Shown here piece by piece: positions 4,407 to 60,906 of a stretch of DNA of 64,000 bases. The position numbers and the translations under genes were made by a program. How positions within the stretch are numbered: the first letter of the stretch is position 1; every line of letters starts with the position of its first letter. The notes under the pieces are model-generated. The model searched no databases. It had not been told where the DNA came from and worked only from the letters and a program-made list of their open reading frames with translations. The stretch is from the NCBI RefSeq assembly GCF_006345805.1, contig NC_043010.1, positions 26,288,001 to 26,352,000 of the forward strand, read 5' to 3'. This stretch comes from Octopus sinensis (Eukaryota).

Positions 4407-4959
4407 GGCAAGACTTCCGCCCGTCCTCCACTCCCCAAAACCACCCTTTAAAACTATTTTTTTCGACACAAACCCCCCTTTTCGGCTACGAGGAATACGA
4501 ATCTGTAAAAAAAATTGGCAAAAATCGACATTTCTAAATCACCCCCACCTCCATTTCCTTCATTTTAAACTTTTTTCACAATTTTCCCCCCAAAATATGC
4601 GGAAAAATACGGAAATTATGATTCTGAAAAAAATTTCCAAAAATCTTAAGAATTTTTTTTTAAGAATTTTTTTCTAAATATGCGGGAAAATACGGACGTC
4701 ATGATTCGGGACAAAAATTTCAAACCATTTCTGTACTTACGGTTAGGGTTACGGTTTTAAGGTTACGGTTAGGGTTTTAGGGTTAGGGTTAGGGTTTTAG
4801 GGTTAGTGTTGGGGAAAAAAGTCAAAATTGTAGAAGTTGCGAGGGAAAGGGGGGAGGACCGTCACAATGCCGATTTTTGGCAATATTCCGAAAACGGGGA
4901 AAAAAATTAGAAAAATAAACAAATTTGGGAGAAAATGGGGGGGGGGCGAAAGTCTTTCC
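4407..4959. mobile_element. Non-autonomous DNA transposon (MITE) with GG/CC termini, 8-bp TSD and internal TTAGGG-like tract; Merlin-like
   Basis: Perfect TSD AGGACTGC at 4399-4406 and 4960-4967. TIRs GGCAAGACTTCCGCCC and GGGCGAAAGTCTTTCC. TTAGGG/TTACGG tract at about 4737-4806. Confidence 0.85.
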
Positions 4960-6901: not shown

Positions 6902-6942
<41 letters not shown>

Positions 6943-7297
6943 ATTGGTGAATTGAAGAAATGGAGCTGAACGCAGATTGAACAGAAATCGTTTTATTTCA
7001 TTCTACACGTGTTTCGAAAGGTTGTGGTTGACGGTAACAATGGGAGTAGGGTAGAGAGCCCCAATAGCATCCCCAGCATCATTTCCCGCAATAGCAGCAC
7101 CACGGGCAGTAGCAATGACAGCACTCTGATAGATAGTGGAGAATCAGGGGTTATTCCTATAGTTAATAGTGACGTAGTGGAAAATAGAGTAGTAAGCGGC
7201 TGCAGGTCTCGGAACGAATATAGTGACAGGAACGCAGTTCTAATTTCAGAAACTAATCCTAGCAGATTAAGATTCACGTCGGCGAACTCCAAGATCA

Positions 7298-7665
7298 AAA
7301 AACGCCGTCTACCAATGCAAGGTTTACACGGACTCAGATGTCTTCACTTATGTAGGGGCATCATCCTCAAGATTGTCTTTGCGTGTCTCCAACCATTACG
7401 CAACTTTTCGGGACGTGAACAAGCGCCAGACCACGGGACTCAGTAAGCTAATATGGCGACTGAAGGATACGAACTTAAGCTATAGGCTGGAATGGTCAAT
7501 TTGTCGGTGGCCCTCCCATTTGATAGGGGCAGAAGACAGTGCAACCTTTGTGTCTCCGAACTCTTCCATATTTTGTTTGCCAGAGGCCGGATGGTAAACG
7601 GGCTCTTACAGTCGGCTTTTCGATGCCCCCATTGGCGGCGTTACACTTATCTGGCTTTTAAATAG
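7298..7665 (+). pseudogene. PLE GIY-YIG endonuclease C-terminal domain, frameshifted (Naiad-like motif pattern)
   Basis: Frame reads KNAVYQCKVYTDSDVFTYVGASSSRLSLRVSNHYATFRDVNKRQTTGLSKLIWRLKDTNLSYRLEWSI, then after shifts CNLCVSELFHI and CPHWRR. Shows AVY-YVG motif, catalytic R and CxxC..E. Confidence 0.75.
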
Positions 7666-8260
7666 CGTTTATAAATAATACCGGCACCCATAGCCCTTAG
7701 TAACAGATTCTGAAATAGCCTTTAAGATATCTACGACTAACCACTGCAAGGGGAATTACTCCTGTAAGACAAACGGGGCTTGGTTTTTTCACAGCGGGGG
7801 GTTTCCTTGACAAGGCAGGCTTAGATGAACACACACACACATAAAACATAATATATATATATATATTTTTTTTCTTTCTGCCATCCAACGGTTATCACGG
7901 CAGTAGCCACTGACAGCCGAACGATCAAACGCACACACGTACACAAAAAATGTTTTCTACCCCTACGCCAACACACACATATATAGAACAGTATACACAC
8001 ACACACGTCTCTAAGTAGATTTTTTCTCGCCCCTTATAAAACCCAATATTCCTTAAATAGTCAGAACTTTATTCTCGGTCACAAAGAACATCTATACACC
8101 CTCACCCACATGATTGACCGATGCCTGACCCGTTGAATTCTTCAGCCACCGGTTCTCAACATACACTGATAAACAGTTCGCCATGGGCTCTTAGGAGCAT
8201 AGTTCGATTTGTTTTTGCTCCGCCTCTGTTCTGTTTTTGTTTTTCCAACGGATTTCCTTT

Positions 8261-8348
8261 TTTCTTCCTGAAGAGAAAGACACAATATGGTCCCATTATT
8301 CAATCGGATTTTGGTAATTTGTGCCTTTCGAAACACGTGTAGAATGAA
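8261..8348 (+). ncRNA. Type I hammerhead ribozyme in PLE pLTR
   Basis: CTGAAGA (8268-8274), stem II GAAAGACACAA/TTGTGCCTTTC, GAAA (8330-8333), palindromic stem III ACACGTGT, GUA cleavage after 8341, stem I TTCTTC/GAATGAA (imperfect). Confidence 0.75.
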
Positions 8349-8576
8349 ATAAAACGATTTCTGTTCAATCTGCGTTCAGCTCCATTTCTTCAATTCCAAT
8401 AATGTTTTAATTTCAATTATCCGCACCAACGCACGGTTGCAACGCCAGATGGTTGTACCTCCAACCGGTGTTTACTGCTGTGATTTTTGCTACTAAGGTA
8501 TCGGTTAAACTTTTGATTAATCTACTACAAGATTATTCATCTTTCTATTTCACATTATATATATATATATATATTA

Positions 8577-29237: not shown

Positions 29238-30860
29238 CTTCTTTACTCTTTTACTCTTTTACTTGTTTCAGCCATCCGGCTGAGGCCATGCTGGGGCCAC
29301 CGCCCTTGTTGCTACCTCTCTAAGTCCAGTTTGCCGTGGCTGGCCACTGATCTAAGAGAGAGTTTGTAGCTGCTGCCCTTAGGTTACCTTCGTACCTTGC
29401 AGTGGGTTCATCTGGGATCCCGGAAAGCAGCTTGTCTAGATGTTTTTTGAAAATGTCCACATCCGCATCATGTAGATCTCTTAGTTTTCTTGGCAGTTTG
29501 TTGAACAGCTGAGGGCCCCTGAACCCCAGGCTATTACAGTATCTGCTCCTTACCCTGGATGTGGAAGACGGGACCTTTGGCACCACACAGTGGACTGTAC
29601 GGGGATTGGAACAGCTCTCAATTCCAAAATTTGGTGCTAGTCCCTCCAGGATTTTCCATATGTATATCACTGCATATCTCTCTCGTCTTCGGTCCAAGGA
29701 GTACAAATGAGTTCCCTAGCCTCTCCCAATAGTTTTTTTCTTTCATGGTGGTGGAAATCCTCTTGGTGAAATGTCTTTGGATTTTGTCCAAGCTCTGTGG
29801 TTAGTTTGACACTATGCGGTGACCACAGTTGAGCAGCAGTAGTCTAGGCGGCTTAGGACAAAGTCCTCCATAGTGTCAACATGGTCTCGCCGTCTCTTGT
29901 CCGGAATGTCCTCAGGATCCAGCCAGTGAGTCGTCTGCACATTGTCGCCACCTTCGCGATGTGTGAAGAAAAGATTGCATCGTCACTCATGTCTATCCCC
30001 AGGTCCCGTATTGATTTCGATACTGGGATTTCGATCCCTCCTGGACCAGTATAGTTGTGTTGTAATGTATATGTGTTTACAGCTTGATATTGTAGGCTTG
30101 AATTTACCAGCATTAAATTGCATGTTGTTTTCTTCAGCCCATTTGTATATGGCATCCAGATCTTGTTGTAAAAGGTCAGCATCAGCTGGGTTTTTAATTG
30201 CCTGTGCTACCTTTGTGTCATCAGCATAGCTAGTGAGGGATGTTGTTTGTGCTACCAAGGGCATGTCAGAGAGCGCCACCAAAAACAGCAGGGTCCCAAG
30301 ACTGTGCCCTGTGGCACCCCGCTTGCTATTGGTGTCTTTCCCGAGAGGGCTCCATGGGCTGCAACCATCTGGCTTCTGTCCTTCAGGAAGTCATGTATCC
30401 ACTCACCTACTTTTCCTGTTATGCCGAGTCTGAGTAATTTGTGACATATCACTCCGTGGTCGACTTTGTCAAAGGCCTTCGCAAAGTCGAGATTACACCA
30501 ATCCACCTGTGAGCGATCCAGTAGTTGTTTCAGTACCCAGTCGTAGTGTTGTAACAGACTGCGTAAGGCAGCTTCTTCCTGGGCGAAAGCCATGCTGTGT
30601 GTCAGTGAGACGGTTAGTTTCTTCGAGGAACGTGATCAGTTTTTTTCTGATGATTCGTTCCATGACCTTACTTATGTGTGACGTCAGGGAGACTGGCCTG
30701 TAGTTTTTGGCCTCTGCTCTACTCCCTCCTTTGTGGATAGGGCATATGGTGCCTTCTTTTAGCGCCCTGGGGCAGTTTACCGTTAGCCAAGGAACCACTG
30801 AAGAGCATCTTCAGTGGTCCCGCTAGGGCATGCCGCATTTTTTAGGAGGACTGCTGGAAA
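29238..30860 (-). mobile_element. 5'-truncated CR1/L2-group LINE, reverse transcriptase pseudogene with 3' tail
   Basis: Frameshifted RT: PIHKGGSRAEAKNYRPVSLTSHISKVMER..QHGFRPGRSCL..LDFAKAFDKVDH..GVPQGTVLGP..SYADDTK..LQQDLDAIYKWAEENNMQFNAGKF..YSLDRRRERY. Tail (GTAAAAGA)n. Confidence 0.92.
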
Positions 30861-52346: not shown

Positions 52347-54845
52347 TTTTACATAAAAAATATCATTCATTCCATTTTATGTTTGTGTGTTATGCTTTGA
52401 AGCAGTAGACTACCCAGAAATCTTCAACTTGGATCCAGCAAAAGAATACACTCCAAATCCTTGTTAGAATACTCATGCAAGCAAAGCAAAGACTGATTAA
52501 ACTGTAACAGCTTGGAGTCATAAAATGGTTGATAATAAAGTCAAACTAATTATAGATATTCTGAATGTATTTAATACATTTGTTTCAGATGATTATGCGA
52601 GAGAGAAAGAATTCGTCTTTTACATAAAACTTTCTTCAGTTAAGACATTTTTAAATATATTCCTTATAAAATAAAGATAAAAGAATGCAAATTGCTTAAA
52701 TTCACAACTTAATGGCAGTGATATGAAAAGGAAAAGGAAAAAAGAAGAAACAGGGACAAAGGAAAATATAAATCAAACCCTAAAATTTGTTTTCAATTTT
52801 TTAGGTTTCAAATTTGCCAAAAGAATCTACCTCGGTTTGTCAGATGAAAGACCATTTTTTTTATGGCAATAGTTGGCTGGTTTAACAGGATCCAGCTAAC
52901 CACAAGGCTGTGCCAAACCCCACTGTTGGCTTTGGCATGGCTTCCACAGCAAGACATCCTTCCTAATGCCAATCACCTAATAGAGTCTACTGGGTCCTAT
53001 TGTTGTTTTTTTTCTTGCCCACAGCACTAGTGAGGTGACCAAGTAATCTAGCCTCACAGAAAAGGGAAAAAGACCCCATGACTATGTGTTGATGGGAAGT
53101 ATTGCAAGGAGGAGGTGATTTTATACCAGATGCAGATGTACGACAGAGGGACAAGAATAAGTATCCTGCATTGATGCGGTTACATGGTTGCTCCCCCTTC
53201 CCCCATTAGGCTTATTTTTCTTTAGGCCAGCAGACTTGTATTAGTTGTTTTGATGTGTGTGTTCGTGCATTAATTGTATTGTGATACATGTATGGTTCCC
53301 ATACCAAAATTTTAATTAAAACAAACAAATTAACACATGACAGCTGAAGCACGGCCCTAATGGTCAAAAAGCCTTTAGTAAGAAAATTTTAATGAATTTG
53401 CTAAGAATATAAGAAATAACACAGATGCCAAATAGTTGGATAGCTGAGTTGACACCACAACCAAGCCACAGTAGTTCCACTTAATTGGTCAATTAACAAG
53501 CCAATCAGAGTCAAACCAACACATGAATCAACTTTCTAGAACTTTCTCATTTAGCCCTGTATAAAGGTGGATTTTGGTGGTAACCCCAGAATGTTGAGGC
53601 CATTTCTTAACTTCTCAAGTCTTCATTATCTCACCAGTTATTGGCAAATAGAAGACACAGATTTTGTTGTCATAAATATGGAGCAATCATTTTCCAATTG
53701 TGATAGGCCAACCTCAATTGCTATGCCTGTTAAATTGTTGTAGATCCCAACAATGTGTCTCTCCCAGTGTGTAACTGACATTGTTATTTTTTATCCCAGG
53801 ATCAACACAGAAAGCAGTGTGAGCAGTAAATAAAGAGCTGTTGTTTGCAAGTGCTGTTCATTACTCCTATGCCCAACCCTAGAAATACGTTTTCATTCAC
53901 CAGCAACAACCACAACAACAACAACAAATCCAAAACATATTCAATTCTTAAAAATAAAACCCATGAAGGTATGGACACACTGAACTTCATTGTTCAAACC
54001 AGTTGTAAAAAACTAATAAGAAAACACCAAAAATCTAAAATAAAAAAAACCCATAAACAGTTGTGTATTTAACGAAACAAATATAAAAGAAAAGCTGTTG
54101 CTTATGTGCATTTGTGTGTAACCCAACACAATGTGTTGCATGGACAGGCCATCAGCAACAAAACTGGCAACATTACCAAGCTGCCAAGAAAGCAGGGTAG
54201 GTTTTGTTGGATTCTTTGCAGATGGAAAACAAAACCTGTCAAAGGGAAGATGAACTTGGTAGAGTCAATGGCCACCCAACAAATGGGAGTCAGAGATCCG
54301 TCTGTTACCCTTTGTTTAGACATCTCTCTAAGATAAGAAAAACTCTAATGTAACATTTGTGGCTTTGTTTGCATCCAGTGATGTAGATTAATCTTTCCTC
54401 TTGAGAAAATATATATATGTTGTTTAGAGAGTGGGATTGACTCTGTGAAGGCCTTTCTGTAATTTAAAAGGAACAGGCATCAATTGATTTTTAAAATCTT
54501 TGTTATGTCTAATATATTATGGCTGGCCATAGCTTTTAAAAAGCAAAAACATACAAAGAAAAATTCCACGATGGCATGAAAGCATGAATCAGTATCGTTG
54601 GTAAGTTTGCCTAACACCTATTGCAAGAGGTGTCCATTGTTTTCACACTTGTGAGAAAGAGCGTAAGTTCCTAGCAGGACTGAAGAACTACATCCAGTAT
54701 TCCTCAAAGCAGCTTGATTTCTAGCAGCACCATCACTTGAACAATCAAATTGCAGCCATCATGTGCATGTGAGTGTGTGTGTGCATGTGTACATATATGT
54801 ATGTGTGTGTGTAAATATATATATATATATTGTGTATATGTATAT

Positions 54846-55275
54846 AAGAACACAAAAGGCGTGTAAAATTTACAGCAGCTGTTTCAGTCGAATTTTGTTG
54901 ATGTATCCATTGATCACATCATAGGACATAATGCATTATCTTCAGGTAAAATTTTAATCATGTATAAACAGGTGACAGAGTATTCTGATGATGTTTTGGA
55001 TAAGTGGTATTTTAAATAAGAACATTCAGATTTATAGAAAAATTAGAAGGCGTGGCTATAAAGAGTATGTAAGAAGCAGAGAGATCAAACGATTCTATTA
55101 CTTCAAAACATTTATCTTAATTAGTTTATAGCCAATACTGGCTTCTGAAAACATACAAGAAACCAAACATGCTGTAGCCAAGAGATGTCCTTAAGCCAGG
55201 AAGATATGTTGTCAGTTAAGTGAGATAAAAGAAAGCAAACCTCAGGGCAGCAAAAAGCCATAAATCTGTCATTAA
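54846..55275 (-). mobile_element. PLE-type repeat with decayed hammerhead (54869-54950); inverted homolog at 58999-59442
   Basis: Minus strand TTTAC-CTGAAGA-..-GAAA-CAGCTG-CT-GTAAA. Shared blocks such as GAGATAAAAGAAAGCAAA.CTCAGGGCAGCA and CATCATAGGACATAAT are found inverted at 59.0-59.4 kb. Confidence 0.6.
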
Positions 55276-55611: not shown

Positions 55612-56855
55612 TTGGGTTGTCAGGAAAGTTCATGCCGATTTATAGCAGCTTACCTTCTGACTTATTTTAGAACATGGTTGAGTCCATAAAATAGGATTTG
55701 ACTACACCTCCATTTAGAGCACAGTTTAAGCTATCTTTTCATGAAAGAAAGTTTATGTTCCTATAACTTGTGTTAATTTTGTAACCCTTTAAAATGGAAG
55801 ATAAGAAAGTTCATTTCGGCACTTGATGCTTTTCTTTTTCCGTAAAGGGAAATATGCCTCACAAGCAACCAAAGAAATATGCGCAGTTTACAGTGATATT
55901 TCTTTATCTGAAAGAACAGTACAGAAGTGGTTCGCAAGGTTCCAAGCTGGAGATTGTAGTCTTATTGATAAAGAGCGATCAGGCAGATCATCCACTACAG
56001 ATGATGATCAAATCAAGTCATTAATTGAGAATAACCCAAATTGCATGACCTGTGAATTGGTAGAAAGCCTCAACCTATCAAAATCTGTCATTCATGAGCA
56101 CCTGATAAAGCTTGGGTACACAAATTGCTACGATGTTTGGCTACCACATGAGTTCAGTGATTCACTTTATAAAATGAATGAAAACGCGCCTTTTTTAAAG
56201 TAAATTGTGACAGGTGATGAGAAATGGATTATCTACCGAAATGTTCAGAGAAAGCGATCCTGGAGTAAGCAACATGAGCCACCCTTAACCATCCCAAAAG
56301 CGGGACTTTACCCTAAAAAAGTCTTGCTTTGCGTCTGGTGGGAATGGAAAGGAATTCTGCACTATGAGCTTCTCTCAAGTAACCAGACAATTAATTACAA
56401 GAAATACTGCACACAACTGGATGAGTTAAAAGCAGCAATTCAAGAGAAACATCCAGAATTGGCCAACAGGAAGGATGTTGTTTTCCAACATGATAATGCA
56501 AGACTGCATTGGGAACCAGACAAAAATTGCTGCAGCTCGGCTGGGATATGTTACCCCACCCTTCATATTCACCAAATATTGCCCCTTCAGATTTCCACTT
56601 ATTCAGGTCTCTGCAGAATAGTCTTAATGGTAAAAATTCAATTCCTTGGATGACATAAAAAGATACCTTTTGATGAATTCTTTGCCATGAAACCACCTCA
56701 ATTCTGGGAAGAGGGTATTTTCAAGTTAAAGGAAAGATGGAGACGTATTGTGCAACAAAATGGTTCATATTTGGTTGATTAAAATTATAATGGCAAGTAT
56801 TTATTGACCTTTTTCTTTCCTTTAAAAATTGGCACAATCTTTCCGGACAACCTAA
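55612..56855 (+). mobile_element. Near-full-length mariner (DD34D), mellifera-subfamily-like, pseudogenised transposase at about 55794-56782
   Basis: TA-TTGGGTTGTCAGGAAAG ... CTTTCCGGACAACCTAA-TA. Peptides MEDKKVHF..LFFFRKGK..QKWFARF..WLPHE..VTGDEKWI..HDNAR. Confidence 0.93.
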
Positions 56856-57329: not shown

Positions 57330-58587
57330 CAAGAAAGTTCTTGCAGAATTTTTTATTTTGGCTTTAAATGATGTATTTTTAAATTAATTTTCATTAAATT
57401 ACTTTGACTTTATATATCATTTTAAAGCCTGTATTTTGCCCTATCTAATCGTGTTACTCTTTTTCTTTTTGAATAATTAAGCCATTTTTTCTGGAACGTT
57501 GAATACAACATGGACAAAAAGCAAATTCGCACAATTTTCTTATTCCATTTCAAGCTAGGCTGAAAAGCTACTGAAACAGCTCGTGATATCAACAATGCGT
57601 TTGGCCCAAGAACCACTAATGAACGTACAGCACAAAGGTGGTTTAAGAAATTTTGTAGCTGTGACAAGAGTCTTGAAGATGAAAAGCATAGTGGTCGGCC
57701 ATCGGATGTTGATAACGATCAACTAAGAGCCTTAGTTGAAGCCAATCCATGCACAACTGTTCGAGAGCTTGCTTCTGAAGTAGACGTAACATGTATGACA
57801 ATTTCCAACCACTTGAAAGAGATTGGAAAAACAAAAATACTTGAGAAATGGGTGCCACACAAATTGAACGACAACCAATTTGAAGTGTCATTTTCCCTTC
57901 TTTTACACAACAAGAACGACCCGTTTCTCAACTGGATTGTGACTTGTGATGAAAAGTGGATTATTCATGACAACTGGTGACACTCAGCTCAGTGGTTGGA
58001 CACCGACAAAGATCCACGGCACTTCCTGAAGCCAAAGTTGCCCCAAAAGAAGGCCATGGTGACTGTTTCGTGGTCTGCGGCCAGTCTCATCCATCACAAC
58101 TTTTTGGATCCAGATGAAAACATTATGGCAGAGAAGTACTGTCAGCAAATGGATGAAATGCATAAGAAACTCTGACAACAACAGCCAACATTTGTCAATA
58201 GAAAAGGACCAATTCTTCTCCACGACAACACTCGGCCACATGTCGCACAACTGACCCTGCAGAAGTTAAACAAATTAGGCTACGAAACTCATCTGCCATA
58301 CTCACCAGACCTCTCGCCTACCGACTAACACTTTTTCAAGCATCTCGACAACTTCCTGCATGAGAAATGCTTCAAAACTGAAGACGATGCCAAACACACC
58401 TTCAATGACTTCATCGCCACCAGAAAGCAGAATTTTTATGCTACTGCATAAATAAACTTGTTTTGCGTTGGCAAAAGTGTGTTGATTCTGATGGTGTTTA
58501 TTTCGATTAATAAAGTTTTGTTTGAGCCGAGATATGTGCAACTGAATTTAAAGGTTAAAAACCGCAAGAACTTCCTTGACAACCAAA
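57330..58587 (+). mobile_element. Mariner (DD34D), cecropia-subfamily/Hsmar1-like, pseudogenised transposase at about 57510-58510; left TIR clipped
   Basis: MDKKQIRTIFLFHFKLG*KATETARDINNAFGP..SGRPSDVDNDQLRA..WVPHKL..VTCDEKWI..LLHDNTRPH..YSPDLSPTD. Right TIR AAAACCGCAAGAACTTCCTTGACAACCAAA-TA. Confidence 0.93.
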
Positions 58588-58998: not shown

Positions 58999-59442
58999 AT
59001 GAAGACAGTTTTATGACTTTCTGCTGCCCTGAGATTTGCTTTCTTTTATCTCACTTAACTGCAAGATATATCTTCTTGTCTTTAGTAACCTCAGGACATC
59101 TCTTGGCTACAGCATGTCTGTGTTTTTTGGAGTTCTTACAGCCAATATTATCTATGAACTAATTAAGATAAATGTTTTCAAATAATAGTCTCTTTGCCTC
59201 TCTCATATCCATTACTGCCACACCTTCAAATTTTTCTATAAATTCATGTTATTTTTAAATACCACCTATACAAAACTGTTGGTTGGATTCATCATCATCA
59301 AGGTATTCTCTCACCTGTATACACCTGTTTAAAATTCTACCTGAATGTGATGGATTATGTCCTATGATGTAATCTATGAATATATGAATAAGATTCTACC
59401 GAAGCAGCTGTTCTAAATTTTAAACCCCATTTGTGCTCTTCA
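58999..59442 (+). mobile_element. Second copy of the 54846-55275 repeat, opposite orientation
   Basis: TGCTGCCCTGAGATTTGCTTTCTTTTATCTCACTTAACTG..GGACATCTCTTGGCTACAGCATG..ATTATGTCCTATGATG. Confidence 0.7.
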
Positions 59443-59810
59443 ATATATACTTACACTTATATATATATACAAAGTGAGATAGGGGTTATGAGTGTAACCC
59501 ACTATGGGATATCATTTATACAATATACTGCCAGTAAAGTACCCAGAAAGGCTAATACATAAATGCTAACAATTGCAATGCAATTAATTAATTTATTGTA
59601 TTATATGGGCGAAGGTAAAATGTTTTACCTCAAATTCATAATACAAAATAAGAAAATGGAGGAATAGATTTCTTCCAATCATCAACTACTAGATAATACC
59701 AATTCATATAATTTATTAACTAATTATTTAGGAACATCCAGATCAAACAGAATAAAACAGTACACATCAATAAGTAAAATAATACCATAAGAACAATACA
59801 TATAAAATGG

Positions 59811-59936
59811 ATCTTACAGCTGTTTCAGCCTGTAGATAAGAGTATCTCATTATGCTCATATTAGTCAGATGTATTGAGGTAATATGCAGTTAAAAATGAG
59901 TTACTTATAAATATATCTCAAGGCCTCGTCAGAGAT
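59811..59936 (-). ncRNA. Type I hammerhead ribozyme with intact core and 99-nt stem II, in a PLE-type repeat (about 59470-60020)
   Basis: Minus strand ATCT-CTGACGA-GGCCT..(long hairpin)..AGGCT-GAAA-CAGCTG-TA-AGAT. Confidence 0.75.
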
Positions 59937-60126
59937 TATAAAGTACAATTATAAAGGTATAAAATGAAGATATAAAGTGCAAATATGAATATTAAAGAAA
60001 GTACACATATACAAGAATAAGCATATATACATATATACATATACATATAAGTGTATATGCACCTACATATACATATATACAAGTATATACATAATAATAT
60101 ACATACACATACACATATATATATAT

Positions 60127-60160
<34 letters not shown>

Positions 60161-60311: not shown

Positions 60312-60906
60312 TATATATTTAGTGAGGGAAGAAATGGAGCTGAACGAAGATTTTACAAAATTCCTTTTTATTATTTTCTACATATGTTTCAAAGGCTGCA
60401 AAGTCCCTAATTCGGATTGAATAAGGAGACCATTTTGCAGCTTTCTCTTCAGGAAAAACCAGGAACTTAAATCTCCAACAAAATGCGCAGCAAGCTTTTC
60501 GACAAACGCTCTCTAGAAGCCCATGGTATGAATGGTGCCATTCATACCATGGGCTCCTAGAGAGCGTTTGTCAAAAAGCTTGCTGCGCATTTTGTTGGAG
60601 ATTTAAGTTCCTGGTTTTTCCTGAAGAGAAAGCTGCAAAATGGTCTCCTTATTCAATCCGAATTAGGGACTTTGCAGCCTTTGAAACATATGTAGAAAAT
60701 AATAAAAAGGAATTTTGTAAAATCTTCGTTCAGCTCCATTTCTTCCCTCACTAAATATATAAAACTTCAAATTTCCGCACTAAGGCACGGTTTTGAGAGC
60801 CCATGGTCGTAACCTCAACCGTGATTTTTCTGTTGGGATTTTTGCTACCCAGGTATCGGTTATAATTTGAATAATCCGTAACAAGATAATTCATTTATCC
60901 ATTTCA

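Follow-up and report, generated by a model that had tools for sequence, protein, structure and literature searches.

Hammerhead ribozymes are known from the pLTRs of Penelope-like retroelements (PLEs), where their function is an open question (PMC8557442, as far as its available text goes; PMC11167929). Those described in the available part of PMC4209133 are inactive alone and show slow or low activity as dimers only, and the hammerhead of PAc (Poseidon, Anolis) undergoes protein-assisted cleavage, with uncut RNA serving as the template (PMC11167929). The search cited in the accessible sections of PMC8557442 used a 7–17-nt spacer, and eight cases with 35–50 nt were recorded there only as 'half cores', so that some PLEs thought to be hammerhead-less may have long-arm ones. 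In the available portion of File S2 of that paper, the longest entries are two plant PLE-X motifs of ~45–55 nt.

The window analysed here, a single stretch of 64 kb, contains a genuine hammerhead, and its setting, the pLTR of a PLE, is a known one. What appears to be new is its long-arm architecture: no published report of a PLE hammerhead with a ~100-nt domain II was found in the literature searched, although the supplements of PMC4209133, Lunse 2017 and Repbase/Dfam might contain examples or the present family itself.

The hammerhead motif and its 99-nt domain II

The segment 59811–59936, read on the minus strand, carries the complete core of a type I hammerhead (CUGANGA, GAAA and NUH, with three helices and stem I open). 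From 5′ to 3′, it consists of the 5′ strand of stem I (AUCU, 59933–59936), the catalytic core CUGACGA (C3–A9, 59926–59932), the 99-nt domain II (59827–59925), the core GAAA (G12–A15.1, 59823–59826), the palindromic stem III ACAGCUGU (59816–59823; a predicted 8-bp intermolecular duplex of −11.1 kcal/mol), A17 (59815) and the 3′ strand of stem I (AGAU, 59811–59814). CUGACGA, GAAA, GUA, the AUCU/AGAU stem I and the palindrome all lie where the preliminary description had put them. The predicted scissile bond, which it had placed between 59815 and 59814, agrees with the established hammerhead consensus (GUA↓AGAU).

Domain II is predicted to form an irregular rod of five to six helices, a reading drawn from the fold z-score, pair counts and the tree null given below. 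The three stem II segments that had been proposed earlier, GGCCU/AGGCU, AGUAACUCAUU/AAUGAGAUACU and CAUAUUA/UAAUAUG, are all there, the first being closed by a G.U pair (10.1–11.1) and the second interrupted by one A.A mismatch, but two additional predicted helices had been overlooked, namely AGAUA/UAUCU (59918–59914/59838–59834) and an apical UCA/UGA. The central proposal, that a type I hammerhead with a canonical core has a long domain II made up of several helices, is supported. The Rfam hammerhead models gave no matches at the gathering threshold in the 64-kb window, so the remark that standard searches would miss the motif holds for Rfam.

A length-relaxed scan of the window recovered three motifs, the 99-nt-arm hammerhead and two copies of a motif with a 55-nt arm; this sister hammerhead, 570 bp from the 99-nt-arm motif, had gone unnoticed, as had the fact that the 99-nt-arm hammerhead is a repeat unit of a PLE with hundreds of copies. 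A near-perfect 450-bp palindrome at 60312–60761 holds two type I hammerheads with a 55-nt domain II (60452–60379, minus strand; 60621–60694, plus strand) and has the appearance of a PLE that inserted into TA as a fold-back. A second PLE family occupies 6938–8400, where an inverted truncated pLTR and a frameshifted Hydra-like endonuclease end (7298–7653) are followed by a 55-nt-arm hammerhead at 8268.

A donor-like GUAAG (59813–59817, minus strand) overlaps the cut site and reads GUAAGU in some subfamilies, in which stem I is down to 2 pairs; no spliced joint from this site was found in the contigs of runs presumed to be RNA. Domain II could itself contain a spliceosomal intron of 75 nt, from GU at 59904 to AG at 59830, the removal of which would leave an ordinary short stem II. 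GU, AG and a CUAAU branch-like motif do occur in the window sequence, and an intron abuts the hammerhead in the Penelope element of D. virilis (available part of PMC4209133). However, the AG is missing from whole subfamilies (CAUGGC, UUGGCU), and no such joint was seen in the contigs of five presumed RNA runs, several of which cross the region unspliced. A domain II intron was rejected on these two grounds and appears very improbable.

The host element

The hammerhead lies in a 5′-truncated copy of a Hydra-like PLE (about 59458–60110, minus strand), which was delimited by colinear blastn matches and comprises the end of the 3′ UTR, the hammerhead-bearing pLTR and the 5′ leader, without an ORF. 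It is colinear with 28 other genomic loci at 84–93% identity (blastn), and longer copies reach ~2.9–3 kb upstream to the GIY-YIG stop codon (2.9 kb in L031, for example). Copies of the family end recurrently at two 3′ points, and comparison of the loci showed 59458–59641 (minus strand) to be the ~180-nt 'tail' that separates them; at L057, where the units are in tandem, the tail continues toward the ORF start. The copy sits in a TA microsatellite, with TA runs on both sides: a TA-rich run at the 3′ junction (59443–59467) and a (TA)n run at the 5′ junction (60116–60160), each the likely target. The extent of 5′ truncation varies among copies, and inverted partial copies are often attached to main copies. 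The window copy is a lone truncated insertion, probably dead where it sits.

Linkage to a coding region was observed in loci chosen by the 3′ end of the endonuclease alone. In eight of these 20 loci (L057, L058, L060, L062, L068, L069, L072 and L073) the endonuclease end is followed, in the same orientation, by a long-arm hammerhead of full length, and the full consensus core and palindrome are present in copies found in this way, for which the core was not used in the search. L057 is a pLTR–ORF–pLTR direct repeat with a long-arm hammerhead in both repeats, 4.6 kb apart. The ORF, as translated from L057, L058 and L060, encodes a reverse transcriptase (RT) with a C-terminal GIY-YIG domain; it is broken in all copies examined and starts about 490 nt downstream of the hammerhead in tandem units. 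Its motifs are RWK, DKT, YRDD, CxCX5C, RVYIG, CxxC and CxH, represented in L057 by RRIRWKVF and HSDKTSN in the RT region; the strings CNCRIKDNC, KCSLC and CLH, read by eye, occur in the linker and endonuclease, without CCHH. Pfam returned no match to the RT family in the ORF and only a sub-threshold GIY-YIG match (E 0.013), so the Hydra assignment rests on motifs read by eye.

A single RT and GIY-YIG ORF, direct or inverted pLTRs, 5′ truncation and an optional tail are the features of an EN+ PLE. The RWK and DKT motifs, the CxCX5C, CxxC and CxH motifs without CCHH, and insertion into (TA)n are those of the Hydra clade, to which the element likely belongs. It differs from the clade in size (generally <3 kb there), having an ORF of ~2.8 kb, a 3′ UTR of ~2.9 kb and a leader of ~0.6 kb. 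In the ORF, the RT and the zinc-finger linker are also separated by a long low-complexity stretch rich in Asn (L057 3440–4370). In the leader just ahead of the ORF (L057 1746–1906), ~150–160 nt are skipped in contigs from two runs, with GC..AG ends in one; this stretch is possibly a 5′ UTR intron of a related family.

Animal type I hammerheads often occur in short non-coding repeats (available part of PMC7229834), and the window copy, which has no ORF, could be taken for a non-autonomous retrozyme or a SINE-like hammerhead repeat. However, the family has no short tandem units, such as the 170–400-nt non-coding units of non-LTR retrozymes, and its copies are variably 5′-truncated pieces of an ORF-bearing element of ~6 kb. 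The ORF linkage refutes such an origin, the probability of which we regard as negligible.

The window holds several other repeats. A 79% inverted pair is found at 54837–54993 and 59293–59449, and on the minus strand the first member carries CUGAAGA...GAAACAGCUG, which resembles a hammerhead in degenerate form. There are two broken transposase remnants (55805–56653 and 57564–58400), presumably mariner-like according to their motifs, and a fragmented reverse transcriptase (29320–30810, minus strand), which we take, on the same kind of evidence, to be of the LINE type. A degenerate interstitial TTAGGG array is located at 4737–4814.

Copy number and related families

The genome searched is 2.72 Gb in size and microsatellite-rich. 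A 321-bp query produced 1,495 first-look candidates, of which the 40 that were scored proved to be 87–100% identical. Both core halves separated by an 82–108-nt spacer matched 564 times genome-wide, compared with no match of the reversed pattern; the motif is therefore not a product of chance. With a looser pattern (70–100-nt spacer) there were 1,135 matches; among the first 20 loci, 14 belonged to this long-arm family and 6 were without clean stem II closure, so that this count includes non-hammerheads. The sister class (40–70-nt spacer) contributes 5,492 genome matches, among them several unrelated-looking families, and long-arm matches total about 6,000 in this one genome. The covariance model R1 gave 27 matches on the collected loci; genome-wide, remote families were sought by pattern only. 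Hammerheads with an ordinary 16-nt stem II occur in inverted pairs at two loci (L056 and L067), and thus short-arm PLE families coexist in the genome. The long arm is also spanned by contigs that bear the code of a second organism, and five runs presumed to be RNA (organisms A and B) have contigs over the motif, which indicate its presence only.

Folding and conservation of domain II

Taken alone, domain II of the window copy has a predicted folding energy of −21.8 kcal/mol (z −3.6); for the 146-nt region the z-score is −2.0, with 6 of 200 shuffles folding equally well. Domain II is 90–109 nt long in all 22 representatives, which are 59–90% identical to the window copy, and its fold has a z-score of −2 or lower in 17 of them. 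Pairing was evaluated in two sequence-only alignments, A1 (20 of the 22 representatives, L080 and L101 being excluded) and A3 (15 rows of A1 and 7 new sequences, with the indel-rich L062, L074, L078, L090 and L095 excluded). In these alignments the structure, which was selected from the very sequences it was scored on, has 79–80% of its cells paired and 10–11 pairs with changes on both sides. Such double changes are present in the middle, distal and apical helices (AU10/GC7/GU3/CG1 and GC9/AU8/GU2 being examples of pair columns). The covariation score was higher than in any of 500 shuffles or any slid control (A1 and A3); the number of double-changed pairs was not above that in shuffles (64/500 and 243/500).

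As a tree null, independent-site drift was simulated on the tree. For the 28 pairs outside the search pattern, it equalled the observed pairing and covariation in none of 600 runs from a random start tip and in 1 of 600 runs that started from the best-paired tips. Outside domain II the alignments carry less information: the invariance of the core in A1 and A3 is largely imposed by the search patterns, and stem III, invariant across the alignment, is partly fixed by them. Stem I is weak, with one double change in 3 of 20 sequences and only 2–3 pairs in several subfamilies. The helix covariation of a type I hammerhead is thus found for domain II overall, and the covariation check among homologues that had been proposed earlier revealed structural conservation across subfamilies.

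Hammerheads in other systems tolerate long stem insertions. The long domain II might be a tolerated insertion, in which the basal 5–9 pairs matter and the remainder is an AT-rich fold-back inherited by descent. Default RNAalifold is consistent with this, as it retains the basal helix and a decoy pairing only, without the distal rod (with RIBOSUM settings the rod is recovered). The distal and apical helices taken singly have no significant covariation (56–104/600, tree null), 5 of the 22 representatives have folds with z-scores that do not improve on −2, and the pairing registers slip between subfamilies. However, the length stays at 90–109 nt down to 59% identity, the combined 28 pairs exceed the tree null, double changes extend to the middle, distal and apical helices, and the unrelated sister family is likewise long-armed. 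A tolerated insertion is accordingly a possibility that we take seriously but doubt. We favour instead a domain II rod, with registers able to slip, that is likely, though short of proven, to be maintained by selection, judging from the aligned copies. The long arm would most likely be a folding or protein-binding scaffold, outside the chemistry.

Predicted folding, cut site and 3′ ends

With folding models that leave out core tertiary energy, the active monomer fold of the window copy lies 5.5 kcal/mol above the predicted minimum (4.8–15 kcal/mol in all 20 sequences), and a decoy pairing of the core CUG with the stem III CAG has a probability of >0.5 in 14 of the 20. The active dimer is predicted at −56.5 kcal/mol, compared with −51.6 kcal/mol for two free monomers, and a misfolded dimer at −64.1 kcal/mol is predicted to be lower than the active one. 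The monomer is thus predicted to misfold into an inactive form, and cleavage by the window hammerhead, according to these models, is likely to take place in dimers. The predicted monomer and dimer energies fit the published PLE hammerheads (PMC4209133, available part; PAc, PMC11167929).

In the window subfamily, sequence continues across the cut site at 224 places and begins there at 2. The 18 cut-site matches consist of 2 element copies starting at the site and 16 chance matches, which is not significant (control position, 0). In the sister family, starts at the cut site showed no clear excess (17 of the 30 examined, against 10 of 10 for a control position). Thus, the template appears to be mostly uncut or re-joined RNA. 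The copies have two discrete 3′ end points: of 59 loci, 32 have their first TA run after the cut site at +171 to +216, 19 at +332 to +392 and 8 elsewhere (10 duplicate loci and loci with a non-matching core were skipped).

These observations bear on whether the hammerhead is catalytically vestigial, its fold being kept for a different role, for example in RT binding, in translation initiation ahead of the ORF, or as a promoter or splice signal. Such a role would agree with the cost of the active monomer in 20 of 20 sequences, the decoy pairing in 14 of 20, the weak stem I, the lack of a clear cut-site footprint, the donor-like GUAAG overlapping the cut site and the position of the motif ~490 nt ahead of the ORF in tandem units, and viral 5′-UTR hammerheads have been tied to translation initiation (available part of PMC13725137). 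Nevertheless, we consider it unlikely. The consensus core and palindrome are intact in copies found via the endonuclease end, without use of the core, published PLE hammerheads as a rule cleave slowly and depend on a dimer or on protein (PMC4209133, available part; PMC11167929), and the energies above ignore the tertiary contribution of the core.

Proposed mode of action and significance

Taken together, the window motif is probably a pLTR type I hammerhead of a PLE, likely of the Hydra clade. Its ~100-nt domain II, shared across the family, is likely a rod under selection, and cleavage is predicted to occur only in dimers, likely with help from the protein that the element encodes. Tandem pLTR–ORF–pLTR units would be transcribed, and the monomer RNA would mostly rest in the inactive fold with the core CUG paired to the stem III CAG. 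Two hammerheads would then pair via ACAGCUGU and slowly cut at GUA↓A, so that the multimer is processed. Reverse transcription would mostly use uncut RNA, with starts ~185 or ~360 nt beyond the cut site, and sequence from either side of this site would for that reason be present in nearly all copies.

A more speculative suggestion, which we offer tentatively, is that several PLE lineages here turned stem II into a large structured module (~55 or ~100 nt) with a function either in translation initiation or, for the RT-endonuclease, as a switch or docking site. If so, this animal group would harbour thousands of protein-gated ribozymes that standard searches fail to reveal. With a domain II 4–9 times the published length, compensatory changes and many natural variants, the family offers a test of whether the arm gates cleavage or binds the protein of the element. 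The ~6,000 long-arm matches in one genome also indicate that length-capped descriptors undercount ribozymes.

Comparison with known systems

The element shares with Hydra-clade PLEs, including Hydra-1_Obim, the C-terminal GIY-YIG domain and the RWK, DKT, CxCX5C, CxxC and CxH motifs, as well as (TA)n targets and a type I hammerhead that has a short stem III and lies close to the 3′ end (PMC8557442; this and the following comparisons with that paper and with PMC4209133 refer to their available parts). However, the core halves are separated by ~11–25 nt in 26 Hydra hammerheads (22–23 nt in Hydra-1_Obim; PMC8557442 File S2) and by 90–109 nt here. Hydra elements are generally <3 kb (PMC8557442), whereas the unit described here is ~6 kb long; its 3′ UTR takes up ~3 kb, and its ORF has an Asn-rich insert. 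Stem III is a perfect loop-less palindrome, unlike that of Hydra-clade hammerheads (PMC8557442).

In the latter respect the motif resembles the minimal, palindromic PLE hammerheads, with which it shares the pLTR position, short stem I, palindromic stem III and predicted need for a dimer (PMC4209133). Helix II of those hammerheads, described as 'larger than usual', has 6–8 bp, compared with five to six stacked helices here. Their 10.1–11.1 pair is a fixed G-C, whereas G.U, A-U or G-C is found in the present family, which, unlike them, has no extra nucleotide between 9 and 10.1 (PMC4209133).

Similarities to PAc include copies that span the cut site, AT-rich targets and a tail delimited, downstream of the hammerhead, by two internal RT start sites, which the two 3′ end points mirror here (PMC11167929). 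The tail is 30–40 bp long in PAc and ~180 nt here, and the ORF, which in PAc starts inside stem II, begins ~600 nt further downstream in the present element (PMC11167929). An enlarged domain II (~45–55 nt) is also found in PLE-X1_sMoe and PLE-X1_sTam, where it was flagged as non-canonical (available portion of PMC8557442 File S2). These two are plant, endonuclease-less elements whose domain II, a short stem with a large loop, has half the length of the multi-helix arm found here.
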